Part shown: piece after piece, positions 18,501 through 45,813 of the stretch
Numbering within the stretch: the stretch's first letter is position 1
Layout of the letters: every line of letters begins with the position of its first letter
Source: an uncultured Acidobacteriaceae bacterium
Lineage (GTDB): Bacteria; Acidobacteriota; Terriglobia; Terriglobales; Acidobacteriaceae
NCBI GenBank assembly: GCA_963821215.1
Contig: CAWGDH010000019.1
Location: 130,858-194,857 of the forward strand
DNA length: 64,000 bases
Reading direction: 5' to 3'
Notes under the pieces: model-generated
The model's database searches: none
What the model was told of the DNA's origin: nothing
What the model saw: only the letters and a program-made list of their open reading frames with translations
Program-made: the position numbers and the translations under genes

Positions 18501-18569
18501 CGGGCCGCTGTGGCGCTAACTTTTGCAGGCTGCCGCCCGTGCATGAGAGGGCAAAAGAGTTTGCCGTGC

Positions 18570-18860
18570 GAAGCGGAAGAGAAACCGCAGGTCCCTCCAC
18601 TGCGCTACGCTCCGGTCGGGATGACAATTCTGTGGGACCACAAATATCCATTCGTTTGACCGTCATTGGGGGCCATTTCCACGCAACAGAATTGTCATCC
18701 CGACCGGAGCGTACCCGGATTTCCTGTTACGCCGCACTCACCAACGCCCGCGTGTGCGGCTTTCTGTAAGGAAAGCCGCATGAAGTTCGCCAACGCCACC
18801 GAGCTCGACAGGAAATCCGGGGTAGCGCAGTGGAGGGACCTGCTGTTTCTCTTCCGCTTC
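18570..18860. repeat. Nested-inverted-repeat element, copy 1 (about 290 bp, MITE/REP-like)
   Basis: The outer 39-bp IR is GAAGCGGAAGAGAAACCGCAGGTCCCTCCACTGCGCTAC, with its complement at 18822-18860. Inside are three further IR pairs: GTCGGGATGACAATTC/GAATTGTCATCCCGAC, CCGGATTTCCTGT/ACAGGAAATCCGG and GCGGCTTTC/GAAAGCCGC. Confidence 0.85.
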
Positions 18861-18958
18861 TCACGGCTCATGTACGGGCTGAAGCCCGTACCCTTCACGG
18901 CCGAGCAGTCCCGCAACCTGTTTATGCCCTGGGAAACCGTAATGTGGAGAGGAAAGCG

Positions 18959-23423: not shown

Positions 23424-24695
23424 ATGACTCGGATTCCGCAGCTTCGCTGGTGGATTGCCGGCCTTCTGGCTTGCGCCGCCGCGCTCAGCTATCTCGACCG
23501 GCAGAGTTTTCCCGTCGCCAGCATTGAGATTCAAAAGCATATTGCGGTTTCTGACCAGCAATACTCAGTGCTGCAGATGCTTTTTCTTCTTGCTTACTCC
23601 GTGATGTATGCAGGTGGGGGCAAGATCGCGGATTGGCTGGGGACCCGTAAGGGCTACTCGATCCTGATCTTATTTTGGTCCGTTGCCACTGGCTTGCACG
23701 GGCTGGTGAGCAGTGTCTTTGGGCTGGGGATTGCGCGGTTTCTGCTGGGGCTGGGTGAAGGCGGCGGATTTCCCTGTTCGTCCAAAGCTATCTCCGAATG
23801 GTTTCCGGCGGAGGACCGGGCACTCGCTTTCGGCATTTTGAATACTGGATCAAGTCTAGGAGCCGTGATTGCGCCTCCTCTCATTGCGCTGATTATCATT
23901 ACGCTCAACTGGCGGTGGATCTTCTTTTTGACCAGCGCAGCGGGCCTGGTCTGGGCTCTCGTCTGGTGGCTCTTCTACAATCCTCCGGCGGAAGAGAGCT
24001 TCATTACTCCGGAGGAGCTGGAGCATATTCAGCAGTCGCTAGCGAGCGCTCGTCTCGCCGATGAGGCCGCGGCGAAAGACCGCCTCTCCTGGATTGATTT
24101 ATTCAAATACCGGCAATTGTGGGTCTTGCTGGCGGCGAAGTTTCTCACCGATGCGGTATGGTTCTTCTTCATCTTCTGGCTGCCCAAGTATCTCGGCGAC
24201 GTGCGCCACCTGAACATAAAGCAGATTGGTTACTACGCCTGGATCCCCTATGCCCTGGCCGGCGCTGGGAGTTTTACTGGTGGCTGGCTAAGCAGCATGC
24301 TGGTCCGGCGTCACCTGACAGTCAATCTGTCGCGCAAGATATGCCTGGGGCTGAGCGCTGCGATGATGCCGATATCGCTACTGATCGCAAAATCTCCTCT
24401 GGGCTGGGCTCTGGTTATCTTCAGCATGGCTCTCTTTGCACACCAGTTTTGGTCCACTATCCTGCAGACTCTCGCAGCCGATATCTTTCCTTCCGCAGTC
24501 GTCGGTTCGGTCGCCGGGCTGATGGGCGCAGTGGGCTCCTTCGGAGCCATGCTCTTCGACCTGATGGTGGGCTCGGCTCTCACTCATACCCATAGTTATT
24601 CGCTGGTGCTGCTCTCCGCGGGCTTACTGCATCCCATCGCATTCCTGCTCGTTTTGTTTTTGATTCCCAGAATCGAGCCTGCCGCGACCGCGTGA
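23424..24695 (+). CDS. MFS transporter (ACS/hexuronate ExuT-like)
   Basis: 12 TM segments. LSYLDRQSFPVA and G.IADWLGTRKG motifs are typical of the anion:cation symporter subfamily. Confidence 0.8.
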   Translation: MTRIPQLRWWIAGLLACAAALSYLDRQSFPVASIEIQKHIAVSDQQYSVLQMLFLLAYSVMYAGGGKIADWLGTRKGYSILILFWSVATGLHGLVSSVFGLGIARFLLGLGEGGGFPCSSKAISEWFPAEDRALAFGILNTGSSLGAVIAPPLIALIIITLNWRWIFFLTSAAGLVWALVWWLFYNPPAEESFITPEELEHIQQSLASARLADEAAAKDRLSWIDLFKYRQLWVLLAAKFLTDAVWFFFIFWLPKYLGDVRHLNIKQIGYYAWIPYALAGAGSFTGGWLSSMLVRRHLTVNLSRKICLGLSAAMMPISLLIAKSPLGWALVIFSMALFAHQFWSTILQTLAADIFPSAVVGSVAGLMGAVGSFGAMLFDLMVGSALTHTHSYSLVLLSAGLLHPIAFLLVLFLIPRIEPAATA

Positions 24696-24716
24696 AATTC
24701 TGTCCTGACCACAACC

Positions 24717-25004
24717 GAAAGAAACCGCAGGTCCCTCCACTACGCTTCCACGGCTCGCCGGGACAGGTCGCTCCGGTCGGGATGACAATTCTTTTGCAGG
24801 GTCAAGATTTTTCGTTGAAGGCACTTGCGGACACAACAAAATTGTCATCCCGACCGGAGCGTACCCGGATTTCCTACTAAGTGGCACTCATCAACAACCA
24901 CGTATGCGGCTTTCCTTAGGGAAAGCCGCATTCACTCCGCCAACGCCACCAGTCGCAACAGGAGATCCGGGGGAGCGGAGTGGAGGGACCTGCGTTTTTT
25001 TCGG
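24717..25004. repeat. Nested-inverted-repeat element, copy 2
   Basis: Same architecture and core motifs as 18570-18860 (GGTCCCTCCACT...GTCGGGATGACAATTC...GAATTGTCATCCCGAC...AGTGGAGGGACC). It begins right after the MFS stop codon. Confidence 0.85.
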
Positions 25005-25145
25005 TTTGACCGTCCCGCTGTTTGGCACATGGGTAGTTATTCTGGTTTGTCACCAAACTCTGGAGACCAAACTCTAATTCGCATTGCGAAGTGAGCTCCT
25101 AGTGGCGGCCATGTGCTCCTTTAACCACTGGAAGGAGGAAACAGG

Positions 25146-25290
25146 TGAGCACGCCATTTACATGTGGAAGGACTCGCATGCAGAATTTGCCGACTGTCTG
25201 ATCAACGCGCGCAACCGCCGACTAGGGTGTCGCGCCACCGCGACATTCGATCGCAGGGCGCTGAAGCTTCCCGGATTCATAGAAGCTTGA
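25146..25290 (+). pseudogene. vapC 3' remnant (C-terminal ~45 codons of the PIN toxin)
   Basis: It encodes HAIYMWKDSHAEFADCLINARNRRLGCRATATFDRRALKLPGFIEA, nearly identical to the C-terminus of the intact VapC at 35072-35467. vapB and the PIN N-terminus are missing. Confidence 0.75.
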
Positions 25291-25918
25291 CGCACAGCGA
25301 GGCGCTATCGTCTGTCATCTCGCCGCCTGTCCCGCCTTGCCGTGGAGCGTGCCGACTCGCCATGGCGCGTTAAAGAGAAATGAACGACGTTAGCTCGGTT
25401 TGGGGGTTGGCTGTCATTTCGTCTACCGCCTTCCCGGGTTGCCACCAAGCCTTGCCCCCTGGACGGGTGCCCCTCGAGAAGTCAGACTGGATTGGCCTTA
25501 TGAAATGCGCTGGCAATACCAACGCGCTTCATGAGTGTCAATCCAGTCTCTGCCGTTTTTTGAGATGAGAAAGATCGATTGATCCGCCCCTTGGGGCGTG
25601 CCCGGGCAACGGCTCTGGTTGCGGTTTGATTTCAGGAATGCGGTGTTCCCGTCTTGGTTTCCCCTTGAGGTGCCGGCTAAGTCCTTTGTTTTACGAAGAT
25701 GGTCAAATTTTAATTTTTCCCGCCCCCATAAGCTGTTTAGGAGACCGATATTTGCCGCACGATGTGCCGCGGCTCATTCGAGGAGCAGAATCTCAAATCA
25801 TCGGAGTCCTGGTTGGGACGGTATTACAGCTCGGTTTTACCGTCCAGCGTTCTGGGAAAAAAAGATGTGGAAGAAGGGTAGGGGAACTACGGAAATGAAG
25901 AGTTTCGGGGACAACGAC

Positions 25919-26050
25919 CTAGTTTTCGGTGGGGGTCTCATCAATGTGATCGATGACCAGGGCCGGGTAAGAACGTTTGGTCTTTTCAGTTTGAGACCTA
26001 GCTGTCTGTTGACGGCGTCGAAGACGGAGAGGGCGCCATTGGGGTCGGAG
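25919..26050 (-). pseudogene. 3' fragment of a TIGR03435-family gene
   Basis: It encodes ...SDPNGALSVFDAVNRQLGLKLK..., matching the C-terminus of the ORF at 36095-36937. Homology stops at 26050. Confidence 0.7.
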
Positions 26051-26115
26051 GCGTTAGCCCTTTCGGTGTACAGATTCTTGTTCACATGAAAGGAGGATTG
26101 AGCCACAGCTGACGA

Positions 26116-26700
26116 TACGGTGTTGATGCTAGCCAGATCAATTTTCCCAATGGCAACGTAGACTATACCAAGGTTCATGACCAAGTGGTGGCCATCGATC
26201 CCACCAACATGACCGTTACCTTGAATCTGATCAACGGCTTCAGCTTCGGCCGCCCGGTTTGGTACCTATCCATGGATGCCAGCAACACCCTAGCAGCAAC
26301 AATCGAGCACAACACCTATGCACCACTGATGAATATGCTTCTCCTTGGATGACGACAGCTTCGGCAGCCCGATCGAGCGCATATTTATCGCCACCAATGG
26401 CACGGAAGGGTGCGACAATCCTCAGCGTCAAGGGCTGTCAGCTGACCTGGCGGATGGCCACAGGCCGAACAATACTCTAGGCGGGATTCCCACGCTCGCT
26501 CTCGACTATAGTCCCGCATGGAACGCACAGTTGTATACCTGGACCGACGATGCTATTTCTAAGGGCTACCGCCAGCAACTTCGCGAGGAGTTCCAGATTC
26601 TCACCTACGCACAAGACGGTCTAATCACCGGATTTCGTGCTGGAACAGCATTCGGCAGCTCTGGTTTCTCAATCAACTGCCCGAGCCAGGGAAAACGGTG
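26116..26700 (+). pseudogene. Frameshifted remnant of an unidentified gene
   Basis: A protein-like reading (..VVAIDPTNMTVTLNLINGFSFGRPVWYLSMDASNTLAATIEHNTYAPLM) hits a stop at about 26350. It then continues in another frame (DDDSFGSPIERIFIATNGTEGCDNPQRQGL...). There is no start codon or N-terminus. Confidence 0.4.
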
Positions 26701-26851
26701 TTCGAGCAGCGCGAGAACCATTTCGACAAAGCTTTGGGGTTGGGTTTCGTTGTTGTCCATCAAGGCTCCCGCGTGCAAGCGAGCATGCGCCTGAGTTGCG
26801 TCCTTTTTCCAGAACTCGACTCGTCGGGCATCCCGTCCTCCGCCCTGTGGA

Positions 26852-27760
26852 CTACATGACGAGAGCCGATGGATTCTCTGTATTTTCAAGGCTCGGGCAT
26901 AACCAGCTCAACTCCGAGGCGTGAGCAAAGCTCTCGCGGAGTAGTTCGGCCTGCCCTTCGGCTGTTAGCGTGGTTTTTTTAAAGGCTTGCGTCACTGCTT
27001 CTGCTACAGGGGCGCCGGCACGCAACGCCCTCAACAGCAGGAAGGTTTCTCGTGCGATCCGGCGATAGTACACCGAATCCTCGAAGCGATGAACGGCAAG
27101 GTAAACGCGCTGCCGCTTCATTGCTGGGAGTCTCATCCGAGTACACATTCCACGCTGAGTCGCCGCACTGCTTACAATGTCGGTCTCAGGCGTTCCTTTT
27201 TTTACCGCAAGCACGAGAGTGTCCACCGGATAGCTCAGTTCAAGCAGCTGAAGATGGGGTTGCAGGAGAAGCCTTGAGTCTGGCCCGACCGAGCCGGCAT
27301 ATTCAGCCGTAACCGGGTCCAAATGTTTCCCATCAAAGGCTTCGACGTACGCCCACTCAAGCCTCGCAACATCGACCGCGAGACGGTGACGCCTTCCGGT
27401 GAACTCGGGATGCGCATCGAGGAATGCCGGGAGCGTCGAACCGAGATCCCGCAGGGTCCAGGACATGGAAGGGTTCTCGGCGAGGTAAGCCAGGATCAAC
27501 GCGTCGAACCGCTTCGGCCCCAGTAAAGCATTGAGGGTTGGGAAATCCTCGGAAACCGCCCTGATGAGGCGGAACCAGTACTGACGGTTGTAGATCTCCA
27601 GGCGCTCGAAAGAGGAGAGGCGCGGGTTCGGTGCAATGTAGCTCGTCGCGATCTCCTCTGTCGATCCACCATTCTCGGTGGTCTTCTGCATCTCGTAATC
27701 CGCAGTCAATGGCCTACGGACATCTTCGGCCATACGCCGCTGTAATTCGAGCAGGGTCAT
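26852..27760 (-). CDS. DUF2063-family protein (BufC/MbnC-like partner of the MNIO enzyme)
   Basis: 302 aa. Its start overlaps the upstream DUF692 stop by 4 nt. The N-terminal pattern LQRRMAEDVRRPL...RLEIYNRQYWFRL is typical of DUF2063. Confidence 0.8.
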   Translation of the reverse strand: MTLLELQRRMAEDVRRPLTADYEMQKTTENGGSTEEIATSYIAPNPRLSSFERLEIYNRQYWFRLIRAVSEDFPTLNALLGPKRFDALILAYLAENPSMSWTLRDLGSTLPAFLDAHPEFTGRRHRLAVDVARLEWAYVEAFDGKHLDPVTAEYAGSVGPDSRLLLQPHLQLLELSYPVDTLVLAVKKGTPETDIVSSAATQRGMCTRMRLPAMKRQRVYLAVHRFEDSVYYRRIARETFLLLRALRAGAPVAEAVTQAFKKTTLTAEGQAELLRESFAHASELSWLCPSLENTENPSALVM

Positions 27761-28638
27761 AGGTAGGCCTCCTTGGCCAGCGTAAATTCCTGCGGAATAG
27801 GGGATTCTCTCGCGAGAAGAAAGCGGTTGGCCTTGAGCGCCTCGGCATGCACCTCTTCAAAAGAGGGGATATTATCATCCCACTCAAGCAGTGTGGCGGT
27901 TGGACCGCAACGCTCAATGGCGCGCTGGTAGAGCTTCCAGACGGGATCGAGGACCGGGTGATCGTGCGTATCGAGGATGTACTTCTCGAACTTCGAGTGG
28001 CCTGCGATATGGATCTGTGCAACACGTTCCGCAGGGATGCTGTTAACGTACACCATTGGGTCGAAATCGTGATTCTGGGAAGAGACATAGATATTGTTGA
28101 CGTCAAGAAGAATCCCGCAATCGGCCGCATGAACGACCTCACTCAGGAACTCCCACTCGGTCATCTCCGAGTCGTGGTACTCGGCATAGCTGCTGACGTT
28201 CTCCACGGCTACAGGAATCTCAAGGTAATCCTGAACCATGCACACGCGTTCAGCAGTAGTACGGATGGCTTCAAACGTGTAAGGAAGAGGAAGGAGATCA
28301 TGCGTGTAGCGGCCGTCCACGCTGCCCCAGCAAAGATGGTCGGACAGCCAAGGGGTCTTGGTCCGCTTCGTCAGTTCCTTGACCCGCCTTAGATGGTCAC
28401 GGTTCAACGGCTGCGCACTGCCAAAGTACATGGACACGCCATGTTGAACGACTCGATATTGATCGAGAGTCTGGTCAAGAATTCTCAGTGGCCGCCCACC
28501 ATCGACCATGTAGTTCTCCGAGATAATCTCGAACCAATCGACTATCGGTTTCTTTGAGAAGATGTGGTCATAATGCGGCACTCTCAGACCGATGCCGACG
28601 CCATAGTCGGTATATCCATTGAAACGATTGGCTGGCAT
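27757..28638 (-). CDS. DUF692 multinuclear non-heme iron oxidase (MNIO; BufB/MbnB-like)
   Basis: YGVGIGLRVPHYDHIF...VDWFEIISENYM at the N-terminus, with His/Asp/Glu-rich TIM-barrel motifs (HGVSMYFGS, LSDHLCW, VENVSSY, LLDVNNIYVS, IHIAGH). ATG at 28638 with a GGAG SD; a TTG at 28662 is an alternative. Confidence 0.85.
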   Translation of the reverse strand: MPANRFNGYTDYGVGIGLRVPHYDHIFSKKPIVDWFEIISENYMVDGGRPLRILDQTLDQYRVVQHGVSMYFGSAQPLNRDHLRRVKELTKRTKTPWLSDHLCWGSVDGRYTHDLLPLPYTFEAIRTTAERVCMVQDYLEIPVAVENVSSYAEYHDSEMTEWEFLSEVVHAADCGILLDVNNIYVSSQNHDFDPMVYVNSIPAERVAQIHIAGHSKFEKYILDTHDHPVLDPVWKLYQRAIERCGPTATLLEWDDNIPSFEEVHAEALKANRFLLARESPIPQEFTLAKEAYL

Positions 28639-28671
28639 GTATGCTCCGCGGACGATGATCAAGAAGAAGGG

Positions 28672-28701
28672 TAGGAGGTCTGTGAGGAGCCAGACCTCCT
28701 A
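28672..28701 (-). terminator. Perfect 11-bp stem / 8-nt loop hairpin between the precursor and MNIO genes (candidate attenuator or mRNA-stabilising element)
   Basis: TAGGAGGTCTG-TGAGGAGC-CAGACCTCCTA. On the mRNA strand it is followed by a pyrimidine-rich CCCUUCUUCUU tract. Confidence 0.5.
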
Positions 28702-28714
28702 GGCGGGGTTGAGG

Positions 28715-29011
28715 TTAGCTCTTGGGGGGCTTGGAGCCGTCTGTCGCGCAAGCGCCTTGCCCCTTGCAGGAATTCTTCCCCCGATGCGCCTTGTCGCCGC
28801 CGCCCTGGCCTTTGCAATCGTTTTGCCCCTTGCAGGAGTGCTTGGGAAGCTCCTTCTCCGAGGCAACCATCACACCGGCGACTGCCGAGGAGCTTGCGGT
28901 TGCTTGCGATTGGCCGGAAATGGGTTGGGCGTTGAGGCGCGCGGTCGTGCCGCCGAGGAGGCCGGCGAAAGCGGCGGCCAGAGCGAGGTTGCTTACTGTA
29001 GTGGTTTTCAT
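28715..29011 (-). CDS. RiPP precursor candidate: 98-aa Sec-signal peptide with a four-Cys core (bufferin-like)
   Basis: Hand translation: MKTTTVSNLALAAAFAGLLGGTTARLNAQPISGQSQATASSSAVAGVMVASEKELPKHSCKGQNDCKGQGGGDKAHRGKNSCKGQGACATDGSKPPKS. An AAGGAA SD lies upstream. It sits immediately 5' of the DUF692/DUF2063 genes. Confidence 0.7.
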   Translation of the reverse strand: MKTTTVSNLALAAAFAGLLGGTTARLNAQPISGQSQATASSSAVAGVMVASEKELPKHSCKGQNDCKGQGGGDKAHRGKNSCKGQGACATDGSKPPKS

Positions 29012-29129
29012 GAAGAGTTCCTTTTTTCGGTTGGTCCAGGCGGTGTGCCTGGAAGTTGAGTTTGACCCGCTATAGCTGGCCGGAAACTGGTGTCGAGGTT
29101 CTCTTTCCCCGCCGCATGTTTGAGGCTTG

Positions 29130-29144
29130 AACCAACGGTTGGTT
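29130..29144. promoter_or_regulatory. 7-1-7 palindrome AACCAAC-G-GTTGGTT upstream of the precursor gene, next to a GTAACC (-35-like) motif on the minus strand
   Basis: Read directly from the sequence. It lies about 120 nt upstream of the precursor ATG. The 1-nt spacer rules out a hairpin, so an operator is more likely. Confidence 0.25.
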
Positions 29145-29162
29145 ACAGACCGCCCTGTAAAT

Positions 29163-29942
29163 TCAGAGAGGCATCGTGGCGGCGCCAACGATTGCTCCCT
29201 GCAGCGGCTCCTGCGCAAACAGGATTAGGTGATGCCCTGATCCACCGCCAAGTTGAAAGCCATCAGGCAGGGGAACATGAATGGACTCTTCTGCGTCGTC
29301 CTTAACTTTTGCCACGCGCGTCAGCGAACGAGCGACAGACACATGCTGAAGGAGCCTGCCGCTATTTTCTCCGCGTAGAACATTCGATCGGTCGGTGTCA
29401 TCCGTAAGAACCGCGACGATATCGAGAGGCTTCGACTGATGGCCCGTAAATGCAAACCTCACATCCACTCCAGAGTCGGAGGCAGTGGAGGAAATAATAC
29501 GCAGAGCGAGATGGTCTCGCCGAGCATCGTCACGGAGAGCGCGCTCAAGAGCCCCGCGGTTGCTGCCTACGAACTGATCACGTCCATTCACGACCATTTG
29601 TGGCGTGTAGGGCCCTTCGGGGGAAAGCCGTGAGGTGTACACACTCTGCCTGTCCGTAAACACTGGAGCGGAATACGGATCTTTCCAGCCGAGATTGTTC
29701 CAGTACGTTACGTGCTCGCTGATGCCCAAAATCAACTGGCCGGCGCTCGTTTGCTTCAAGTTGATCTCGCGCAGCAGAGCATCGGCCGGAGGGCAGCTTG
29801 AACATCCTTCTGATGTGAAGAGCTCCACGACCGCTACGGAAGCAGGCCTTTCTGGGCCTGCCCCGCCAGGCGCAGCGAAACACGTAACCGCGCTGATCCC
29901 GAGGAGTGTAAACGAAAGAGCAAGTAAGGAACGAAGCTGCAT
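29163..29942 (-). CDS. DUF1223-family secreted thioredoxin-fold protein
   Basis: ATG at 29942 with a GGAGG SD. Signal peptide MQLRSLLALSFTLLGISAVTCFA. Hallmark motif VELFTSEGCSSCPPAD. Confidence 0.75.
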   Translation of the reverse strand: MQLRSLLALSFTLLGISAVTCFAAPGGAGPERPASVAVVELFTSEGCSSCPPADALLREINLKQTSAGQLILGISEHVTYWNNLGWKDPYSAPVFTDRQSVYTSRLSPEGPYTPQMVVNGRDQFVGSNRGALERALRDDARRDHLALRIISSTASDSGVDVRFAFTGHQSKPLDIVAVLTDDTDRSNVLRGENSGRLLQHVSVARSLTRVAKVKDDAEESIHVPLPDGFQLGGGSGHHLILFAQEPLQGAIVGAATMPL

Positions 29943-30108
29943 GGATCTGCCTCCAACTGAACGTTTCTTATCTGACACAGCGACTCTCAGACGGTTACAG
30001 AGGTGATTTTCGAAGATGAGACTGTAACCGAACTGAGCCGTAGGTCTCTAACCATGAGACAAGAGGTCCTCGCGCTGAGGAGCGAGGCGCCATACCAAGG
30101 AAGAAATC

Positions 30109-30639
30109 ATGAGTCAGCTTCTACATGCCTATCGCCGAATCATTTCAGTATTCTCCTCACTGCAGTCTGCCATGCTGCTGGCCGTCAGGCTCTATTGGGG
30201 ATTTCAGTTTGCCCAGACAGGCTGGGGCAAGCTTCACAACCTACCCAGGATCACGGCATTTTTCGCGAGCCTCAATATTCCCTTTCCAGGCTTCAACGCT
30301 CCTTTCATCGCTATGCTGGAGTTCACGGGCGGCATCCTCCTTATGCTCGGATTGTTCTCGCGTCCGATCGCATTTCTTCTCGCCTGCAATATGTTCGCGG
30401 CCTACTGGACAGCCGATCACGAGGCACTCGTCTCGATCTTTTCCGATCCAGGTAAGTTCTACGCTGCCGACCCGTACACGTTCCTGTTTGCCTCGCTCAT
30501 GGTTCTGATCCTTGGTGCGGGTCTATATTCGGTTGATACTCTCGTCGCCAGATATCTAACGCGTCGAAGTAACGCGTGCCTAGGGTGCTGCGTGCCCCAG
30601 ACCGACAAAAGGGTAGGTGCGGAGTTCCTGGCTCGATGA
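30109..30639 (+). CDS. DoxX-family membrane protein
   Basis: LLAVRLYWGFQFAQTGWGKL ... EFTGGILLMLGLFSRP is the typical DoxX helix pattern. Four TM segments. Confidence 0.8.
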   Translation: MSQLLHAYRRIISVFSSLQSAMLLAVRLYWGFQFAQTGWGKLHNLPRITAFFASLNIPFPGFNAPFIAMLEFTGGILLMLGLFSRPIAFLLACNMFAAYWTADHEALVSIFSDPGKFYAADPYTFLFASLMVLILGAGLYSVDTLVARYLTRRSNACLGCCVPQTDKRVGAEFLAR

Positions 30640-30695
30640 GCGAGTCAGTTTTCATCATTTCCGAACTTCCAAAGCGGACGAGAAGGAGAGTAGAG

Positions 30696-31427
30696 ATGGG
30701 CAAGTTAGATGGTAAAGTGGCGGTGATTACCGGAGCAACCTCCGGAATGGCGCTGGCGTCGGCCAAACTGTTTGTCGAAGAGGGTGCACACGTCTTCATC
30801 ACGGGCCGGAGGCAAGACAATCTGGACAAAGCGGTCAAAGCGATCGGACGCGATGTGACCGGAGTGCAGGGCGATTCGGCGAAGTTGGCTGATCTCGATC
30901 GACTCTACGAGACGGTCAGGCGGGAGAAGGGCTATATCGATGTTGTGTTTGCCAGCGCCGGTCATGGCGGCCGCGCGCCGCTGGGGGAGATCACAGAAGA
31001 GCAGTTTGACAGCATCTTTTCCCTGAATACCCGCGGAACAGTCTTCACGGTGCAGAAGGCGCTTCCCATGATGCGGAATGGCGGATCGATCATCATGAAC
31101 GGATCGATAGCTCACCTCAAGGGCATGCCGGGGCTTGGCGTTTATGCGGGAAGCAAGGCGGCTCTGCGGTCATTCGCGCGATCGTGGGCGGTGGAACTCG
31201 CAGAGAGCAGGATTCGCGTGAACGTGCTCAGCCCGGGACCGATCGCTACCAACGCTCTCGCGAACGCCCCTGCAGAAGCGAAGGAGTACTTTCTGTCAGC
31301 CATTCCTCGCAAGGAGTTCGGACGCTCGGAGGAGATCGCAACGACGGCTCTGTTTCTCGCTTCCGACGACTCCAGCTTCGTGAACGGCAGCGAGATCTGT
31401 GTTGATGGCGGATTAGCACAGATCTGA
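30696..31427 (+). CDS. Short-chain dehydrogenase/reductase (SDR)
   Basis: ATG at 30696 after a GAAGGAG SD. LDGKVAVITGATSGMALASAKLF, and the Y-x3-K motif (YAGSKAA). Confidence 0.85.
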   Translation: MGKLDGKVAVITGATSGMALASAKLFVEEGAHVFITGRRQDNLDKAVKAIGRDVTGVQGDSAKLADLDRLYETVRREKGYIDVVFASAGHGGRAPLGEITEEQFDSIFSLNTRGTVFTVQKALPMMRNGGSIIMNGSIAHLKGMPGLGVYAGSKAALRSFARSWAVELAESRIRVNVLSPGPIATNALANAPAEAKEYFLSAIPRKEFGRSEEIATTALFLASDDSSFVNGSEICVDGGLAQI

Positions 31428-31491
31428 TTATCGACAAAACGACAAACAGGTATAGCCGAAACGCCACGTTCTGACTGGCTATAACGAACTA

Positions 31492-31755
31492 ATGATCGGG
31501 TTGGGACTTGTAGTTGGCGTTCTGACCTGCACCGCGAGCGGGTTCGGCATCACGGTGACGGCGCTCCTGCTGGCGCTAGCCGGTTACTCTGGGCCGCATG
31601 TCGCCCTATGGCGGTTTTTGGGCGCCTCGCGCCAGTGGTTCGTTCTTATCACGTGTTTCGCTGCATTCATCATCGGCGAACCCGAACCGCGGTGGTCGCT
31701 CATGTCGCGCCTGCGCCGTTGGTTGCAACAATGCCTTGGGGGGACATTAGTGTAA
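31492..31755 (+). CDS. Small hypothetical membrane protein
   Basis: ORF with two hydrophobic segments. No other support. Confidence 0.25.
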   Translation: MIGLGLVVGVLTCTASGFGITVTALLLALAGYSGPHVALWRFLGASRQWFVLITCFAAFIIGEPEPRWSLMSRLRRWLQQCLGGTLV

Positions 31756-31867
31756 CCAAATTCACTTCCGGTTCTCTAACGATTCGAGGCGGGAGTGCCG
31801 TTCCCGGCTCAGCCTTCTGCCAAAGAGACACTCATATCTCGAGGACGGTGAGTACAGCCCGGTAACC

Positions 31868-32347
31868 ATGGAACGGCACTCCTCAACTCGAACCGAAGCC
31901 GAAATGATTGCCGCCATTTTGGCTGGGGATACGCAGCTTTACCACGAATTGATCCATCCCCACGAGCGCTGCGTGTATTTAATGGCCTTGTCTCTTATGA
32001 AGAACGAGGCGGATGCGGAGGATGTCGCACAGGAGGCATTCCTGAAGGCCTTTCGTAACCTATCCACATTTAGGGCGGAATCCAAGTTCGGCACCTGGCT
32101 CATCAGCATTACACTCAATGAGGCGAGAAGCCGACTTCGGCGACAGAGGATCGTTCGCATGGAATCGCTTGACGATCCTCCCGATGGCGGAGGAGTTGTG
32201 TCTCCGGCTTTGCTCCGGGACTGGCGCGAAATTCCTTCGGAAGTTGTGGAGCGGCAGGAGATTCGTCAGATGCTTCGTGCCAGTTGTAACCTTTTCTCTT
32301 TCCCTCAATCATATGAGGGCTTTCGCTCAATCAAGCCGATGCTCTGA
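31868..32347 (+). pseudogene. ECF (group IV) sigma-70 factor, truncated within region 4
   Basis: Region 2 is intact (EDVAQEAFLKAFRNLSTFR...FGTWLISITLNEARSRLRRQ). The ORF stops about 29 aa after the start of region 4 (EIRQMLRA...FPQSYEGF), so the 4.2 HTH is absent. Confidence 0.55.
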
Positions 32348-32437
32348 AGATTGAGACCAGGGCCAGCAATGGACCGAAGAGGGCCAGAGGAAGTATCTCT
32401 GGTCCACACCACATGAACCAATAAATTGGGAGAAGAC

Positions 32438-32737
32438 ATGGACCTTTTTGCAATATCAGCCACACTGGAAGCACGACCGGGTAAAGAAGGTGAAGTCGAA
32501 GAGTTCCTGAAATCCGCGCAACCATTGGTTATGGAAGAAGGAGGAACGACGACATGGTTTGCCTTTCGCATCGGACAGGCCACGTTCGGTATCTTCGATA
32601 CATTCGCGAATGAAGCCGGACTGCAAGCGCATCTGAACGGCGCGATTGCCAAGTCACTCTTCGCCAAAGCTGAAGAATTATTTGCTAAATCACCGCAGAT
32701 TCAGCAGGTAGAGATCTTTGCGGCCAAGCCGCTTTAG
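32438..32737 (+). CDS. ABM-domain (antibiotic biosynthesis monooxygenase-like) protein
   Basis: About 100 aa with a ferredoxin-like pattern (ATLEARPGKEGEVEEFL...WFAFR...FGIFDTF..EAGLQAHLNG). ATG at 32438 after a GGGAGA SD. Confidence 0.65.
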   Translation: MDLFAISATLEARPGKEGEVEEFLKSAQPLVMEEGGTTTWFAFRIGQATFGIFDTFANEAGLQAHLNGAIAKSLFAKAEELFAKSPQIQQVEIFAAKPL

Positions 32738-32950
32738 GTCGTTTGGATGATCACCACAGCGCATCAGATCGCGCCCCGTCTTCAAGATCATCGGAGTGAT
32801 GAAACAGAATTCATGCACGAGCCTGTAACCTTTCCTCCCGTGGCCTCTCGAATAGCTGCGCACAAAGCGGATTGTGCTCCAGCGCTGCCTTCGCCGGCAG
32901 CGTCTGGATCTTTTTTGAGCGCAAATCCTCACCCTTCCAAGGAGTAGCAA

Positions 32951-34081
32951 ATGTTGAAAGCAATTCGTGGCCTGTTGACCATCGCGCTCAGCGTTGGAGC
33001 AATTACCTCAACCATGTATGCCGCTGAGAACGTCGCCGGTTCCTCTTCAACCGTCTTCGTCATGACGAATGACACTGTCAAAAACGAGGTGCTCGCCTAT
33101 CAGCGTCAACGGGATAATAGTTTCGCTTTGAGGGGGAGCTTTGCAACTGGTGGCCGCGGGAGCGGAGGTACCACTGATCCATTGCAGTCGCAAGGTTCAC
33201 TCACTCTCAGCGGTAATCACAACCTGCTGTTCGCTGTCAACGCAGGCAGCGGCACCATCTCCAGCTTCCATCTCCTCGGCGGTCTGCCCATCCTCGTCGA
33301 TCAGGAGACCACTGGCGGCGCCTTCCCCGTCGCGGTCGCAGAACACAACGGCACAGTCTACGTCCTCAATGCGGGCGGAAATGGAGCCATCGTAGCCTTC
33401 CGCGCCGATGGGCTCGGTCACCTCTCCCAGATTTCCAACTCCACCGCGCTTCTCACTGCCACGAACTCTGGCGGCTCTTCCATCTCCGTTAGCCCGAACG
33501 GCCGGACACTCGTCGTCATCGAAAAGGCTCCCGAAAACATCGACATATTTCCCATCAACCCAGACGGAACCCTTGGGACAGTGGTCACCACTCACAGCGT
33601 AACCGCCGGTATCTTTGCTACCGTCTTCACACCGGGTGGCCAACTGATCGTCTCTGAAGACCAGCCTAACGGAACGGACGTTTCCAGCATCTCCTCCTAC
33701 ACCATCAACGCCAACGGCACCATTACCGCGATCAGCCAGAGCATTCCTTCTTTTGGTGACGGTAACTGCTGGAACGCCATCACTCCGAATGGCAAGTTCG
33801 TCTACGCTGACAACTCCGCCACTTCCACGATCGCTGGCTTTTCTGTCGGCTCCAACGGTGCCCTCACTCCGATCGGCGGAACGATTGTCGCTTCCTACCC
33901 CGCAGCCACTATTAATCTCGATATGGTCGTCAGCGGCGACGGCAATTACCTCTACACGCTCAACTCCGGCACAGGTTCTGTCGGCATCTACAGCATCAAT
34001 TCCGATGGCACCCTCAGCAACCCAGGTGACATCGAAGGCTTACCAAAGACCGTAGGCTTCAACGGTATCGCTGCACTGTGA
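32951..34081 (+). CDS. Secreted beta-propeller protein (lactonase / 3-carboxymuconate cyclase-like)
   Basis: Signal peptide, then repeated blades of about 45 aa (..G.G.ISSF.., ..NGAIVAFR.., ..IDIFPINPDGTL.., ..GSVGIYSINSDGTL..). Confidence 0.65.
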   Translation: MLKAIRGLLTIALSVGAITSTMYAAENVAGSSSTVFVMTNDTVKNEVLAYQRQRDNSFALRGSFATGGRGSGGTTDPLQSQGSLTLSGNHNLLFAVNAGSGTISSFHLLGGLPILVDQETTGGAFPVAVAEHNGTVYVLNAGGNGAIVAFRADGLGHLSQISNSTALLTATNSGGSSISVSPNGRTLVVIEKAPENIDIFPINPDGTLGTVVTTHSVTAGIFATVFTPGGQLIVSEDQPNGTDVSSISSYTINANGTITAISQSIPSFGDGNCWNAITPNGKFVYADNSATSTIAGFSVGSNGALTPIGGTIVASYPAATINLDMVVSGDGNYLYTLNSGTGSVGIYSINSDGTLSNPGDIEGLPKTVGFNGIAAL

Positions 34082-34107
34082 TTGCAATGGGCTTAGGCCC
34101 GTTGGCG

Positions 34108-34141
34108 GCCCACGCAGGTAAGTTCCCTTGCCTGCGTGGGC
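34108..34141 (+). terminator. GC-rich hairpin 27 nt after the lactonase-like stop (11-bp stem, 12-nt loop, no U-tract)
   Basis: GCCCACGCAGG-N12-CCTGCGTGGGC read directly from the sequence. Confidence 0.4.
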
Positions 34142-34426
34142 TGCGTCTCCTCAACGAGCGTCTCCCTCGATATTTCTATAGCGCTCAGGAAGAATCATGT
34201 ATCCGGACTGACACAATCGAGTCCCCGGAGTACAGGCGTTTTCGTTTACCTTCGGATGACTGCCCGAGCGTGCAACATCTGGCTAAGACAGGTTCCCGGA
34301 TTACTTGATAGCACGTCAAGCGGCACTTCAGCTCACCCCCCATAGGGTAGTCCAGAGTTTTTATCACTATCGTGCCACTGGAGGAAATGATGGTTGCGAT
34401 TGAGGTGGAATATCAAGGAGAGCTGC

Positions 34427-34625
34427 ATTTTTCGTTGAGGGCACTTGCGGACACAACAAAATTGTCATCCCGACCGGAGCGTACCCGGATTTCCTACTAA
34501 GTGGCACTCATCAACAACCACGTATGCGGCTTTCCGTAGAGAAAGCCGCATACACTCCGCCAACGCCACCAGTCGCAACAGGAAATCCGGGGGAGCGGAG
34601 TGGAGGGGCCTGCGTTTCTTTTCGG
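34427..34625. repeat. Nested-inverted-repeat element, copy 3 (right two-thirds only)
   Basis: It contains GAATTGTCATCCCGACCGGAGCGTACCCGGATTTCC...GCGGCTTTC..GAAAGCCGC...GGAGTGGAGGGGCC. It lacks the left outer arm. Confidence 0.8.
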
Positions 34626-34853
34626 TTTGACCGTCCCGCTGTTTGGCACATGGGTAGTTATTCTGGTTTGTCACCAAACTCTGGAGACCAAACTCTAATT
34701 CGTATTGCGAAGTGAGCTCCTGGTGGCGGCCATGTGCTCCTTTAACCACTGTAAGGAGGAAACAGGTGAGCAAACAATAGGCGATTGCTTCCCAATTTGC
34801 CTGGGCATTCGTTCCTTACTACAATGATGTAAGTAAGGATTCGGGGGATCGCC

Positions 34854-35072
34854 ATGAGCACGGAGGCAACACTCACGAGCAAAGGGCAGACGACAATTCC
34901 GAAGCCGATCCGCGACCGTCTTGGGATGAAGGCCGGAGACAGAATGACGTTCACGTTGATGCCGGACGGCGTTGTGGTCATGCGAGTGAAGAACAAGCAC
35001 GTGTCGGACCTGGCAGGACTTCTCCGTAAGAAGGGCAGGAAGGCCGTGCCCATTGGGCAACTGTCGCGCTGA
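34854..35072 (+). CDS. vapB: AbrB/MazE/SpoVT-family antitoxin
   Basis: LTSKGQTTIPKPIRDRLGMKAGDRMTF is a swapped-hairpin SpoVT/AbrB motif. The stop overlaps the vapC start (TGATG). Confidence 0.8.
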   Translation: MSTEATLTSKGQTTIPKPIRDRLGMKAGDRMTFTLMPDGVVVMRVKNKHVSDLAGLLRKKGRKAVPIGQLSR

Positions 35073-35467
35073 TGCTCGGCATTGACACCAACATCCTCGT
35101 TCGATACCTGGTCGGTGATGACCGGTCCCAGTATGAACGAGCCCGGCGATTGATCCATCGCGAAGAAAACATCGGCGAACCGGTCTTGGTGAGCTTGTTG
35201 GTGTTGTTGGAGATGGAGTGGGTATTGCGCAGCCGGTACGAATTGACAAAGCCCGACATCGTCGCGGCACTTTCTTCCTTACTGCAGACGGCTGAAGTCG
35301 TCTTTGAGGATGAGCCCTCTGTTGAGCACGCCATTTACATGTGGAAGGACTCGCATGCAGAATTTGCCGACTGTCTGATCAACGCGCGCAACCGACGATT
35401 AGGGTGCCGCGCCACCGCGACATTCGATCGCAGGGCGCTGAAGCTTCCCGGATTCATGGAAGCTTGA
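35072..35467 (+). CDS. vapC: PIN-domain ribonuclease toxin
   Basis: MLGIDTNILVRYL (first acidic residue), LLEMEWVL, FADCLI. About 130 aa. Confidence 0.85.
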   Translation: MLGIDTNILVRYLVGDDRSQYERARRLIHREENIGEPVLVSLLVLLEMEWVLRSRYELTKPDIVAALSSLLQTAEVVFEDEPSVEHAIYMWKDSHAEFADCLINARNRRLGCRATATFDRRALKLPGFMEA

Positions 35468-36094
35468 CGCACAGCGAGGCGCTATCGTCTGCCATCTCGC
35501 CTGTCCCGCCTTGCCGTGGAGCGTGCCGACTGGCGATGGCGGGTTAAAGAGAAATGAACGACGTTAGCTCGGTTTGGGGGTTGGCTGTCATTTCGTCTAC
35601 CGCCTTCCCGGCTTGCCACCAAGCCTTGCCCCCTGGACGGGTGCCCCATGTTCGAGAAGTCAGACTGGATTGGCCTTATGAAATGCGCCGGCAATACCAA
35701 CGCTTCATGAGAGTCAATCCAGTCTCTCCCGTTTTTTGAGATGAGAAAGATCGATTGATCCGCCCCTTGGGGCGTGCCCGGGCGACGGCCCTAGTTGCGG
35801 TTTGGTTTCAGGAATGCGATGTTCCCGTCTTGGTTTCCCCTTGAGGTGCCGGCTAAGTCCTTTGTTTTACGAAGATGGTCAAATTTTAATTTTTCCCGCC
35901 CCCATAAGCTGTTTAGGAGACCGATATTTGCCGCACGATGTGCCGCGACTCATTCGAGGAGCAGAATCTCAAATCATCGGAGTCCTGGTTAGGACGGTAT
36001 TACAGCTCGGTTTTACCGTCCAGAGTTCTGGGAAAAAAAGATGTGGAAGAAGGGTAGGGGAACTACGGGAATGAAGAGTTTTGGGGACAACGAC

Positions 36095-36937
36095 CTAGTT
36101 TTCGGTGGGGGTCTCATCAATGTGATCGATGACCAGGACCGGGTAAGAACGTTTGGTCTTTTCCAGTTTGAGACCTAGCTGCCTGTTGACGGCGTCGAAG
36201 ACGGAAAGGGCGCCATTGGGGTCGGAGCTGTTGGCGGCATCTCCGGCGGTGGGAAGCATCTTATCGGCGGAGCTGAAGCTGAGCGTGAAATCATAGGAGC
36301 CCTTCAGACCTGTGCCGTCTATCACCGTGTTGTAGATATAACCGTTGGCTACGTGCTGGAGCTCGTCGCCGATCTGGGCGATGGTCATGTTCTGGCAGGA
36401 GAGGAGCCGGTTGAGGACGGGGTTGGCGGTGCGGGGATCTTTGCCGTCCGGACCCGGGCCTTCCTTGCATTTGGTGCGTTCGGTGGGGTCGGTCGTGGGC
36501 TTAAGTTTGGGGTTGGCCGCTACTAGAGTGTAAGCGGTGACGGGGCGGTCCTCCATATGCCACTTCATCTGAAAACGCTCGGTGATCATGGCCCGCATCA
36601 TGCTGCGGAGGTCTTCGTAGTTGATGAGGCGGGCGGAGGAAAACCTGTCCACCCGAACATTGGCTCCAGCCTTGGCGGTGATGTCGAACTTGCTGTCATC
36701 GAGCCATTTGGGCGCGTTGGCGATCCCTTCCTTATTGTTGGGGTTGATGTCCCAGGCGAAGTTAATGAGGAACCTGAGGGGAATGGCGCGGGTCTCGACC
36801 TGGTCACCGGTGATGCGCCCGTAGCCCTTCTCACCAGGGGCGCTGGGCTTGATGACGGTGACCTCGAACGAAGCCGGAGGCGGCTCGGGAAGGGCTTGGC
36901 CGATGTTGGCGACGTTGGGGGTCGGGAGTTTCGTCAA
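36095..36937 (-). CDS. TIGR03435-type domain ORF lacking a signal peptide (possible second domain of a fused protein)
   Basis: The family-like N-terminus FEVTVIKPS and C-terminus LSVFDAVNRQLGLKLEKTKRSYPVLVIDHIDETPTEN are both present. The only possible start is a TTG with an AGGTGG SD. It overlaps the upstream ORF by 107 nt. Confidence 0.65.
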   Translation of the reverse strand: MTKLPTPNVANIGQALPEPPPASFEVTVIKPSAPGEKGYGRITGDQVETRAIPLRFLINFAWDINPNNKEGIANAPKWLDDSKFDITAKAGANVRVDRFSSARLINYEDLRSMMRAMITERFQMKWHMEDRPVTAYTLVAANPKLKPTTDPTERTKCKEGPGPDGKDPRTANPVLNRLLSCQNMTIAQIGDELQHVANGYIYNTVIDGTGLKGSYDFTLSFSSADKMLPTAGDAANSSDPNGALSVFDAVNRQLGLKLEKTKRSYPVLVIDHIDETPTEN

Positions 36938-37694
36938 CGCTCGCCACCTGGAAGACGGGGCGGGGAGCGGTTTTGAGTTCGAGCTTGAGTCCTAGTTGCT
37001 TTTCTACGGCGGCGAAGATGGAGATGCCATCGGCACCCTGCTTTTCAAGCAGGTTGCGAGGGGTCCATTTGATGGTGAAGTCCCAGGCGCCTGCAAGGTT
37101 GGTTTCGTCGACAACCGGTTGATCGAGATATCCTCTAGCGAAGTTGTGGAGAGTGTCGGCGAGTGCGGGCATGGTGAGATGCTTGCAGCTGGCGCTGATG
37201 TAGAGCGGTGCGCCGGGAGGATTGTTTGCTGGCGGAGGAAGAGGGATGCAGGAGCTATCGCCCGAACCTTCCGACTCGGTCATCTTCGGCTTTCCGGAGG
37301 CGGCAGAGAGGATGTAGGTTGGCATAGGAGCGGTAGCAGTTTTGACAACGAGGTGAAAGCGGTCGGCGAGGAGAGCGCGAAGCATGAGCTTGACGTCCTC
37401 CGGTGTGGTATTGGGCGGCACTTTCGCGCGGATGTCGTAGTGATCGCGCTCGAGCCACGTGGGACCTCCGTGCACATTGGCTACATCGACGCCGTAGGCG
37501 GTGGCGATGAGTTCGGCCATGGTGGCCTGGGTAAGGAAATATCGGTCGCCCTGGATGGAGTTGCCGTGCATAAAGGGATTGGACGTGAATGGGCTGGTGT
37601 GGACGTCGGCGATGATGAAGGACTTGGGGGCGCTCGTGGTCTGAGCCTGCGACGAGATGGAGAGAATCGCGAAAAGAACGAGAACCGTTCGCAT
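36831..37694 (-). CDS. TIGR03435-family secreted protein (the last ~30 codons look out of frame)
   Basis: Signal peptide MRTVLVLFAILSISSQAQ. Family-like ...AAVEKQLGLKLELKTAPRPVFQVASVDETP, then an Arg/Pro-rich tail. Confidence 0.7.
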   Translation of the reverse strand: MRTVLVLFAILSISSQAQTTSAPKSFIIADVHTSPFTSNPFMHGNSIQGDRYFLTQATMAELIATAYGVDVANVHGGPTWLERDHYDIRAKVPPNTTPEDVKLMLRALLADRFHLVVKTATAPMPTYILSAASGKPKMTESEGSGDSSCIPLPPPANNPPGAPLYISASCKHLTMPALADTLHNFARGYLDQPVVDETNLAGAWDFTIKWTPRNLLEKQGADGISIFAAVEKQLGLKLELKTAPRPVFQVASVDETPDPQRRQHRPSPSRAASGFVRGHRHQAQRPW

Positions 37695-37982
37695 CCGGTA
37701 GCCTCAGGGTGGGGCGGATCGCGTGCTGAATGGTACTTAGGTTAACGCGAAAATGAGGGTGGCGCCAGACGGAGCCTTTGGGAAAGCATCAGTCGCTTGT
37801 CTGTAATTTTCGTTCCTCGGCTACTCCGAAATCATCCCAATCGTTCTGAGCCATGTTTCTACCAACTCAGGCCGTCCCGAGACCCCCGAAACCCAAGCTA
37901 TCTTCTCCTTCGATTCCTTCTAACCCTCAGCTGGGCGACTCTTGGTAGTCCGGGGTAATTTCGTCCCGAAACACTCGGACGG

Positions 37983-39712: not shown

Positions 39713-39787
39713 TGGAGGCGCGGGATGGAATTGAACCATCAAATAAGGCTTTGCAGACCCTTCCCTTTTCGTTTTGGGTTCCGCGCC
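39713..39787 (-). tRNA. tRNA-Cys (anticodon GCA), CCA-encoded, with a non-canonical D-arm
   Basis: Hand-folded cloverleaf. Acceptor GGCGCGG/CCGCGCC, discriminator U73 + CCA, anticodon loop CUGCAAA, T-arm GAUGG-UUCAAUU-CCAUC. D-arm is CCC(A)-AAACGAAA-(A)GGG, with A8 and no G19. Confidence 0.7.
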
Positions 39788-40447: not shown

Positions 40448-40587
40448 AGAAAGGTCGAATATCAGTGTTTCTGTGATGTGCGGAGCGAACGTGTTGAACG
40501 AGAAATCTGGGTGCGTACGAACGCACAGGATGAGTTCCAACGCGACGCATAACGACCTGGATTCGCGGGCGAAGGGCTGAGGATCGC

Positions 40588-42180: not shown

Positions 42181-42466
42181 AAGGGTCAAAGAAAATGTAC
42201 CAAACCTAACACAGCGGTTGCCACGCAAGGCCTTTTCCCCGATTTCGACCACGGGGATCAGGGTTAGAGATCACACTCAATGGTCAAACGGACGACCGCA
42301 AGAGATACATAACTTGTGAGACAGCTCTCGCGCTTGACAGCCGGCGCCGGGCCATGATCATCAACGGTGTTCGCTGACAGATGGCGCCTCATCGGACCAC
42401 AGCGGTAAGGCCTCATCCTTCGACCTATTGTTGTGGTATCTTGAGCGGTAGAAGGTTGAGGTATTG

Positions 42467-42808
42467 ATGCCATCTTCTCGATTTCCTATTCCTCAAGGCA
42501 CGCTCGACATGCTGATTCTCCAAATCCTCTCTTTGGAGCCGGCGCACGGGTACGGGATTGCCCAGCGGCTCGAACAGATCTCGAAATCCGTTGTCCAGGT
42601 GAATCAGGGATCTCTGTATCCTGCGCTCCACAGGCTGGAACAGAAAGGCTGGTTGAAAGCCGATTGGAAGCAATCGGAAACTGGACGCGAAGCCAAGTTC
42701 TATTCATTGACACGCTCCGGGCAAAAGCAGCTCCGCTCTGAGAAAGACAGCTGGGCTCGTCTGACGGGCGCGGTGCAACTGATTTTTGACGAGGGAGCAG
42801 CGCAATGA
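42467..42808 (+). CDS. PadR-family transcriptional regulator
   Basis: GTLDMLILQILSLEPAHGYGIAQRLEQ...QGSLYPALHRLEQKGWL is the canonical PadR wHTH. Confidence 0.85.
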   Translation: MPSSRFPIPQGTLDMLILQILSLEPAHGYGIAQRLEQISKSVVQVNQGSLYPALHRLEQKGWLKADWKQSETGREAKFYSLTRSGQKQLRSEKDSWARLTGAVQLIFDEGAAQ

Positions 42809-45531: not shown

Positions 45532-45553
45532 TTAGGGAAAAGCAGGAGAGGGG

Positions 45554-45576
45554 AAAAGCAGGACAGTCCTGCTTTT
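45554..45576. terminator. Bidirectional intrinsic-terminator-like palindrome AAAAGCAGGAC-A-GTCCTGCTTTT
   Basis: A perfect palindrome 23 nt after the ADOP stop, with an A-tract 5' and a T-tract 3'. Confidence 0.55.
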
Positions 45577-45813
45577 GCCTCAAAGTGCCAGCTCCGCTGT
45601 CCACGAAACTTCATGAATCGGCGTGCTCGTCATCAGAAGGAATGGATTTAGCAATCCCAGCCTTCTCCCTGAAGTACGCTCCGCACAGAAGCGGACAAAC
45701 CGGCTTGGCGTCCGCCTCGATCCAACCCTTTGCGAGGCATCGTCCGCTGTCGAGGCAGACCAAGTGACAGACAGGACGTGCCCCATACGCGCACAACTGG
45801 GGTTCGTCCTGTC

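Follow-up and report, generated by a model that had tools for sequence, protein, structure and literature searches.

Diverged direct repeats around a xenologous bufferin locus in an uncultured Acidobacteriaceae bacterium: the probable scar of a single duplication-insertion

Campbell-type single-crossover integration and the homology-facilitated illegitimate recombination that takes place in natural transformation are known processes that leave foreign DNA bracketed by a direct duplication of its anchor. One joint is illegitimate and shows microhomology, no dedicated recombinase is needed, and the repeats may be diverged from the outset. Tandem and segmental duplications with join-point insertions, which are accounted for by template-switch or break-induced replication models, combine a direct duplication with foreign filler at the join, a microhomology joint and a breakpoint in a palindrome. 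Integrase islands and integrative and conjugative elements (ICEs) carry horizontally acquired accessory genes, have direct repeats, reuse the same slot and can have a toxin-antitoxin (TA) module aboard. All of these features recur in an 11.4-kb interval within a 64,000-nucleotide window from an uncultured Acidobacteriaceae bacterium of soil, to judge by its named relatives (assembly GCA_963821215.1, contig CAWGDH010000019.1, positions 130,858 to 194,857 of the forward strand). Two direct repeats, R1 (24807-26050, + strand, 1,244 bp) and R2 (34427-36227, + strand, 1,801 bp), enclose an 8.4-kb insert, X (26051-34426, + strand), that is a degraded copy of a locus for bufferins, which are copper-chelating peptides. 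Described bufferin clusters contain bufABC together with DoxX (PMC11626156, PMC12452194), and type II TA modules are described as stabilising genomic islands (PMC8978831, PMC5006074, PMC12548467).

The structure is probably the fixed scar of one duplication-insertion brought about by the host's own recombination rather than by a mobile element. R1 and R2 are direct sister copies private to this lineage, and the joint J1 between R1 and X is illegitimate, as in a segmental duplication. A duplication-insertion event was already suggested in the preliminary description of this DNA, and it is supported here by the xenology of X and by the sister relationship of the two repeats when nine outgroup species are compared. 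The locus also differs from each of the systems named above. No circular intermediate or donor allele of the Campbell type has been observed here, and the anchor, unlike a cloned homology arm, is a 1.8-kb mosaic of a mobile-element fragment, a TA cassette, non-coding sequence and a gene tail. Relative to duplications with join-point insertions, the filler is 8.4 kb of xenologous DNA rather than a short local template, and the event is ancient and fixed rather than transient. In contrast to integrase islands and ICEs, there is no integrase, the repeats are kilobase-long segments instead of short att sites, no joint lies at a tRNA or gene 3' end, and no excised form is known.

Repeat search and pairwise alignment place R1 and R2 in the same orientation. 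The refined alignment of 24807-26058 with 34427-36235 gives 97.0% identity, with 37 substitutions over 1,247 aligned bases that are evenly distributed (2-4% per sub-segment) and a few additional indels of 1-4 bp. The last eight bases of R1 in this alignment (to 26058) belong to the inserted DNA, so that the true right edges are 26050 and 36227. The single large difference is a segment of 556 bp of R2 (34773-35328) that is missing from R1. The hexamer TGAGCA flanks both ends of this segment in R2, and a single TGAGCA is found in R1 at 25146-25151 (+ strand). Alignment and junction read-out identify this hexamer as the deletion joint, at which R1 lost the antitoxin gene vapB and the first two thirds of the toxin gene vapC; seven strain-contig loci from four ENA assemblies reproduce the joint letter for letter. 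No target-site duplication was seen at 24807 or 36227 in the alignment of the two copies.

Each repeat is a mosaic consisting of part of a dispersed palindromic element, the vapBC cassette, approximately 620 bp of non-coding DNA, itself a patchwork of several low-copy dispersed repeats, and the final ~130 bp of a DUF3738/TIGR03435 gene. The near-identical direct repeats first reported at 24808-26050 and 34427-36227 are thus confirmed at 97% identity with exactly the right edges then given, as is their four-part composition, with the qualification that vapBC is intact in R2 only. The complete 1.8-kb unit occurs at only two sites in the 8.1-Mb genome. Its unique core (34622-34782) has no match in any of 67 genomes of the genus, and a 24-mer taken from this core retrieved nothing in a metagenome scan.

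The left edge of both repeats falls within the palindromic element. The full-length copy at 24717-25001 is a nested inverted repeat of approximately 285 bp that folds into one long hairpin and resembles a miniature inverted-repeat transposable element (MITE); more than 100 copies or fragments are dispersed over the genome. R1 starts inside the inner-hairpin loop of this copy, so that the left end of R comprises the right two thirds of the element. R2 begins at the equivalent of position 24807 in the same loop and retains 25 nt of copy-specific loop sequence. The element in R2 is therefore a truncation of the same copy as that in R1 and not a separate insertion, which led to rejection of the element as paired transposon ends. 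A composite transposon was likewise rejected, as the palindromic element in R is truncated and non-autonomous, and neither a transposase nor a target-site duplication accompanies it. A further copy at 18547-18865 is missing from the same site in one locus of the related genome G005 and is shorter in the other; the element is mobile or at least unstable. The family is found genus-wide at ~80% identity, and orthologous sites vary in whether they carry a copy and in its length; no transposase was identified as its partner.

The right edge provides the polarity of the two copies. R2 runs on into a full tandem DUF3738/TIGR03435 gene (36095-37694, - strand; Pfam and NCBIfam), which is one 532-aa open reading frame (ORF) in strain contigs. 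The equivalent part of R1 (25919-26050, - strand) is a 3'-tail pseudogene fragment with a weak Pfam DUF3738 hit, in which alignment with R2 and nine outgroup species identifies a 1-bp frameshift and derived substitutions. The gene tails of R1 and R2 share states that are absent from all nine outgroup species, and the repeats are therefore sister copies formed in this lineage or in a very close relative. The derived substitutions and the frameshift mark R1 as the decaying copy and R2 as the one continuous with the full gene. When the window is compared with 99.9%-identical sister strains, R1 holds 3-4 of the 9-13 differences in 12.7 kb, an excess that is expected of unconstrained DNA. The 3% divergence between the repeats is far greater than the strain-level divergence (0.04-0.07%) and about a quarter of that from the nearest species (10-13%), which implies either long persistence or lowered recombination.

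The outgroups came from a 1.68-kb DUF3738 module (36087-37764, promoter and coding sequence) that is present at 85-94% identity in at least nine species, with different neighbours in each; in G007 the DUF3738 pair occupies the same slot in inverted orientation. As a marker of orthologous loci the pair was rejected, because its flanks vary by species; it supplied outgroups for polarity and no ancestral site. Compared with two sister-strain contigs, the window has an extra C at 36923 that splits the gene into overlapping ORFs at 36095-36937 and 36831-37694; the additional base may be a true frameshift or may stem from a homopolymer error in long-read assembly.

The insert itself can be traced to other species of the genus. 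The segment 26116-32276 is 94.6-97.5% identical to contig C8 of G004 and in part to C18 of G005, and 32274-34326 is 97% identical to C23 of G007, against only 86-90% identity to the same genomes (G004 and G005) in the core genes that flank the slot. The bufferin locus of G004 and G005 sits in sequence orthologous (88-89%) to 74.6-79.6 kb of contig C5 of the present genome. At this native locus the operon slot (C5:75183-76863) holds an unrelated 352-aa ORF and no bufferin operon. Since X is closer to the locus of other species than the core is, and the native site is devoid of the operon, X is a xenologous copy of the bufferin locus of the genus, placed at an ectopic site and derived from a related species. 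These comparisons make it an instance of xenologous replacement away from the native site.

X has also undergone several internal deletions relative to G004, G005 and G012. Only a 64-bp scrap remains of a 163-aa gene and only the 3' 570 bp of a 478-aa gene (26115-26684, + strand; positions 7413-7983 of G004 locus L035, within the ORF 6567-8003), for which the genome retains a native paralog at C5:78139-77568 (89% identity). Approximately 1.5 kb is gone before bufC, and another loss of approximately 1 kb has truncated a sigma factor. Conversely, X keeps pieces that are gone from G004 (part of the DUF1223 gene and a short-chain dehydrogenase gene) and from G007 (a lactonase gene). The GC comparison proposed in the preliminary description was carried out and sets X only mildly apart: its GC content is 0.558, that of the genome averages 0.583, and X ranks at the 7th percentile among windows of its size. 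Compositional foreignness was rejected as an argument, this percentile being expected for a donor of the same genus.

The two joints of X with the repeats are of different character. At J1 (26044-26058, + strand), three differences at the end of R1, equivalent to positions 36228, 36229 and 36233, match the source-like locus of G005 and not R2, which places the true breakpoint between 26050 and 26051. The 64 bp that follow (26051-26114), of which 56 bp lie past the apparent repeat end at 26058, are 96% identical to the G005 locus L036 at ~5067-5130. The microhomology is imperfect, with CGGAG in R and CGGCG in the source, and the joining, inside the DUF3738 tail, is illegitimate. J2, between 34426 and 34427, lies within the inner-hairpin loop of the palindromic element, which would be a plausible break site.

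The structure was further examined in contigs from other assemblies retrieved by exact-protein look-up. Three ENA metagenome contigs, ERZ25039518 contig_4074 (799 kb), ERZ25039522 contig_4200 (98 kb) and ERZ25039482 contig_26641 (193 kb), span the entire order from the major facilitator superfamily (MFS) transporter gene through R1, X and R2 to the DUF3738 gene at 99.93-99.96% identity. Partial cover is provided by ERZ25039493 (left half) and ERZ25039470 (right half). Six joints (core to element, R1 start, TGAGCA deletion, J1, J2 and R2 to gene) are verbatim in every contig that covers them. No single-repeat or X-less allele was found among the contigs of the five sampled populations. R1-X-R2 is thus real and fixed in all sampled populations, so that the possible misassembly raised in the preliminary description is contradicted by three long and two partial contigs of independent ENA assemblies. 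The other reservation raised there, that relatives might carry the same gene order without the repeats, also fails, as no such relative was found.

The sister-strain contigs (L047, L048 and L049) represent different strains, as indicated by three structural differences. Two carry a 4.3-kb insertion (DUF1059, DinB_2 and IS110 transposase) between the DUF3738 and oxidase genes; one has an IS4-type insertion together with loss of window positions 42441-47656 (5.2 kb); and in one, 216 bp have been inserted into the non-coding part of R2, with duplication of a 10-bp target at 35631-35640. Look-up of the MFS protein gave short contigs only, all interrupted at the palindromic element, and exact look-up of BufB gave no match, because the called protein has a different start codon. 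A 2-kb contig of an NCBI metagenome-assembled genome (MAG), L051, joins an intact vapBC to J1 and ends at a paralog boundary. It was rejected as proof of an undeleted R1: R1-type and R2-type variants alternate along it in blocks of 3, 5, 3, 8 and 9 sites, and collapse of the repeat during short-read assembly is its most likely origin.

In the proposed course of events, the ancestral order would have been MFS gene, palindromic element, vapBC, non-coding DNA and DUF3738 gene, and an 8.4-kb piece of the bufferin locus of a related species would have been inserted so that a copy of the 1.8-kb local segment stands on either side. Two routes, to which we give roughly equal weight, both fit. In the first, of Campbell type, a close relative would already have carried R joined to X at J1; a chromosomal fragment of that relative would have circularised at J2, and one homologous crossover in R would have integrated the circle, the 3% then being the divergence of donor and recipient. 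This route would explain both the diverged repeats and the right end of homology as mere differences between donor and recipient. In the second, in situ route, a break at the hairpin would have been repaired by copying R from the sister chromosome, followed by a template switch into imported X DNA and rejoining; no intermediate lineage would be needed. Afterwards, R1 decayed, losing vapBC by the TGAGCA-mediated deletion and gaining a frameshift in the gene tail, while vapBC and the DUF3738 gene stayed intact in R2.

The effect of the deletion on vapBC bears on the retention of the interval. In R2, vapB (34854-35072, + strand) encodes a 72-aa antitoxin of the MazE/AbrB (PrlF) type (Pfam MazE_antitoxin/PrlF), and its stop codon overlaps by 1 nt the start of vapC (35072-35467, + strand), which encodes an intact 131-aa PIN-domain toxin (Pfam PIN). 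The predicted genes fit the layout of a type II TA module, with the PIN toxin gene after an overlapping AbrB/MazE-type antitoxin gene. What remains in R1 is a 45-codon 3' remnant of vapC (25153-25290, + strand), whose translation matches the VapC C-terminus and which also gave a tblastn match. The sequence shared by R1 and R2 extends for 907 bp (72%) to the right of the 556-bp deletion point and for 346 bp to the left. A crossover between the repeats in the right 907 bp would therefore lose vapBC together with X, whereas one in the left 346 bp would remove X but leave vapBC in place, and any protection is thus partial. As in TA-stabilised islands, an intact vapBC borders the accessory DNA, and most deletions between the repeats would remove both.

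The vapBC cassette (~675 bp, 34795-35469, from operator to stop) was also observed in six other species (loci L040, L011, L041, L012 and L042) at 88-92% identity, with the same edges and unrelated flanks. Such identical edges in unrelated surroundings indicate that vapBC moves as a minimal module without a visible mobility gene.

Several points weigh against a duplication-insertion by host recombination as outlined above. There is no clear microhomology at J2, and the 100 bp that precede this joint (34327-34426, + strand) are an orphan filler: homology to G007 ends at 34326, and no match to the filler was found in this genome or in any relative locus compared. Neither the ancestral-order allele nor the donor-order allele postulated above was found in any genome, among the genus genomes and the metagenome contigs. 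A single study and a single assembler may lie behind the ENA assemblies, which then represent independent samples rather than independent methods. Finally, what holds the interval in place is something we only infer: selection for the only bufB and bufC probably does so, and the lone surviving vapBC may help.

The long repeats were initially taken to make the interval excisable or amplifiable by homologous recombination. This is possible in principle, as ~1.25 kb of direct homology at 97% suffices as a substrate, and an active, recombination-prone island, in which the 1.2-kb repeats drive RecA-dependent excision or tandem amplification at a relevant rate, could also account for the variant blocks of L051 as gene conversion between the copies. 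The observations lend it no support. The structure is the same in each of the five populations sampled, none of which yielded an assembled deletion allele; the 37 differences are evenly spread, with no converted tracts in the long contigs; the 3% divergence itself implies long persistence or lowered recombination; and collapse of a short-read repeat is a simpler source of the L051 mosaic. Among the genus genomes and ENA contigs no allele that lacks X alone was found; the near-empty slot of G004 concerns the whole 41 kb described below. Active excision or amplification is accordingly regarded as distinctly unlikely, and the scar of a past duplication-insertion remains the preferred explanation.

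The MFS transporter gene (23424-24695, + strand; Pfam MFS_1) is the last conserved gene and forms the left border of a slot. The gene order shared with G004, G005 (two loci), G009 and G012 breaks off at 24684-24712, where the MFS stop codon lies. In G004, the ortholog of C19:196515 onward, which corresponds to window coordinate ~65665, follows the MFS gene after only ~1 kb. This near-empty version defines 24.7-65.7 kb as a variable slot of ~41 kb, in which the 11.4-kb unit is nested. The earlier designation of the unit as an accessory island therefore stands as to its accessory nature and fails as to its being self-contained. Other slot contents are typical acidobacterial accessory genes, including MacB-like permeases, a multicopper oxidase, a sulfatase and a beta-lactamase-fold protein, and modules of 1-5 kb recur in other contexts in other species. 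Pfam scans of the ORFs in R, X and the ~41-kb slot, with a size floor of 50-120 aa, revealed no integrase or transposase, in agreement with the preliminary description.

A remnant of an integrase island that targeted the tRNA-Cys gene at 39716-39787 or the MFS 3' end and later lost its integrase, with the long repeats as an incidental feature, would be consistent with the presence of a tRNA gene within the slot (Rfam, 51 bits), with reuse of the slot border across the genus, and with IS110 and IS4-type elements that come and go in sister strains. Neither an integrase nor a fragment of one was detected in slot ORFs of at least 120 aa, however, and no att-like short repeat was seen at the slot borders. 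In addition, the repeat edges lie in a hairpin loop and in a gene tail with microhomology instead of at a tRNA or gene 3' end, and the oxidase-tRNA pair is also found elsewhere as a unit. Such a remnant is very unlikely, and a tRNA-targeted island in particular was rejected, there being no integrase or att site beside the tRNA-Cys gene and no relation of the repeat edges to it. An assembly artefact, in which two strain variants of one locus were concatenated, could be imagined for a MAG-like genome of 26 contigs with an estimated contamination of 4.3%, but it is practically negligible given the 3% divergence and the 556-bp indel between the copies, the uniqueness of the sequence at both joints, and the contigs of 98-799 kb from three other assemblies that each contain the entire structure.

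The tRNA-Cys gene (anticodon GCA, - strand) scores 51.3 bits in Rfam against a gathering score of 29, and ARAGORN reported no tRNA in the window. The stretch of ~77 bp is 96-97% identical in many relatives, and a second genome copy of the oxidase and tRNA pair lies at C6:446568-448395 (83% identity). Elsewhere in the slot, a stretch of a PMT_2 glycosyltransferase gene (40457-41500) reaches 96-98% identity in G004, G008, G012 and G014, well above core identity, and may be another recently exchanged module.

The gene set of X is, on the basis of its predicted products, that of a bufferin-type cluster. The maturase gene bufB (27757-28662, - strand) matches Pfam MbnB_TglH_ChrH and encodes an MNIO protein that scores 349.4 bits with the NCBIfam equivalog NF050167 (MNIO_BufB; cut-off 310). 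It is co-directional with, and overlaps by 4 nt, a bufC-like gene for a DUF2063 partner protein (26852-27760, - strand; Pfam DUF2063, E = 3.8e-17). Both bufB and bufC are single copy in the genome. A candidate precursor peptide of 98 aa (28715-29011, - strand) has, in translation, a signal peptide and four Cys residues in CKGQ..C units, and reaches 25.4 bits with the BufA2 model, below the cut-off of 60. The remaining genes encode a DUF1223 protein (29163-29978, - strand; Pfam E = 4e-55), a DoxX membrane protein (30109-30639, + strand; Pfam), a short-chain dehydrogenase (30576-31427, + strand; Pfam) that is missing from the G004 copy of the locus, an extracytoplasmic function (ECF) sigma factor truncated to region 2 (31868-32347, + strand; Pfam and NCBIfam) by the ~1-kb deletion at 32275 relative to G004 and G012, and a lactonase-like beta-propeller protein (32951-34081, + strand; Pfam) that is 91% identical to that on C1 of G012 and of which G007 keeps the 3' end only.

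Pfam and NCBIfam searches thus verified the genes first listed between the repeats, apart from the ABM monooxygenase, whose ORF has only a weak, sub-threshold Pfam match (E = 0.021). In common with described bufferin clusters, X has an MNIO protein above the BufB equivalog cut-off, a DUF2063 partner, a candidate Cys-rich precursor with a signal peptide, adjacent DoxX and ECF sigma genes, and a multicopper oxidase nearby. It differs from them in that the precursor falls under the BufA2 cut-off, the sigma factor is truncated, and the cluster is an ectopic xenolog with several internal deletions.

The same slot border carries a second kilobase-scale duplication. In G012, a 681-bp direct duplication of 95.7% identity (C10; L032 4651-5331 and L033 196-875) comprises the MFS 3' end plus 250 bp and brackets 15.4 kb that encode haem proteins, sigma factors and a group II intron reverse transcriptase, with no integrase. 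It is independent of R1 and R2, and it fits the pattern of the Campbell-type route.

The kind of event described here is already known, and the locus is a new, well-resolved instance of it; as a single locus it is ordinary genome-plasticity biology. It offers a base-resolved case in which a lost gene cluster was replaced by a relative's copy at another site without mobile-element machinery, the cluster being the genome's only predicted bufferin operon. The scar is a diverged direct repeat of kilobase length, with one joint in a microhomology and the other in a hairpin loop. Accessory genes enclosed by long direct repeats should not be taken by default for an excisable element; here the structure is old, fixed in the sampled populations and decaying. 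The G012 case, which makes this a kilobase-scale duplication seen twice at the slot border, hints at a recurrent mechanism in uncultured soil Acidobacteriaceae. A bolder proposal, which we consider unlikely though worth stating, is that the slot after the MFS gene is a recombinase-free capture site, where palindrome breaks or single crossovers with circularised fragments of relatives repeatedly lodge xenologous segments. Each event would leave a kilobase-scale, already diverged direct duplication, and vapBC in one repeat would hold the captured DNA. If true, this would constitute a general route of gene-cluster exchange in soil Acidobacteriaceae.

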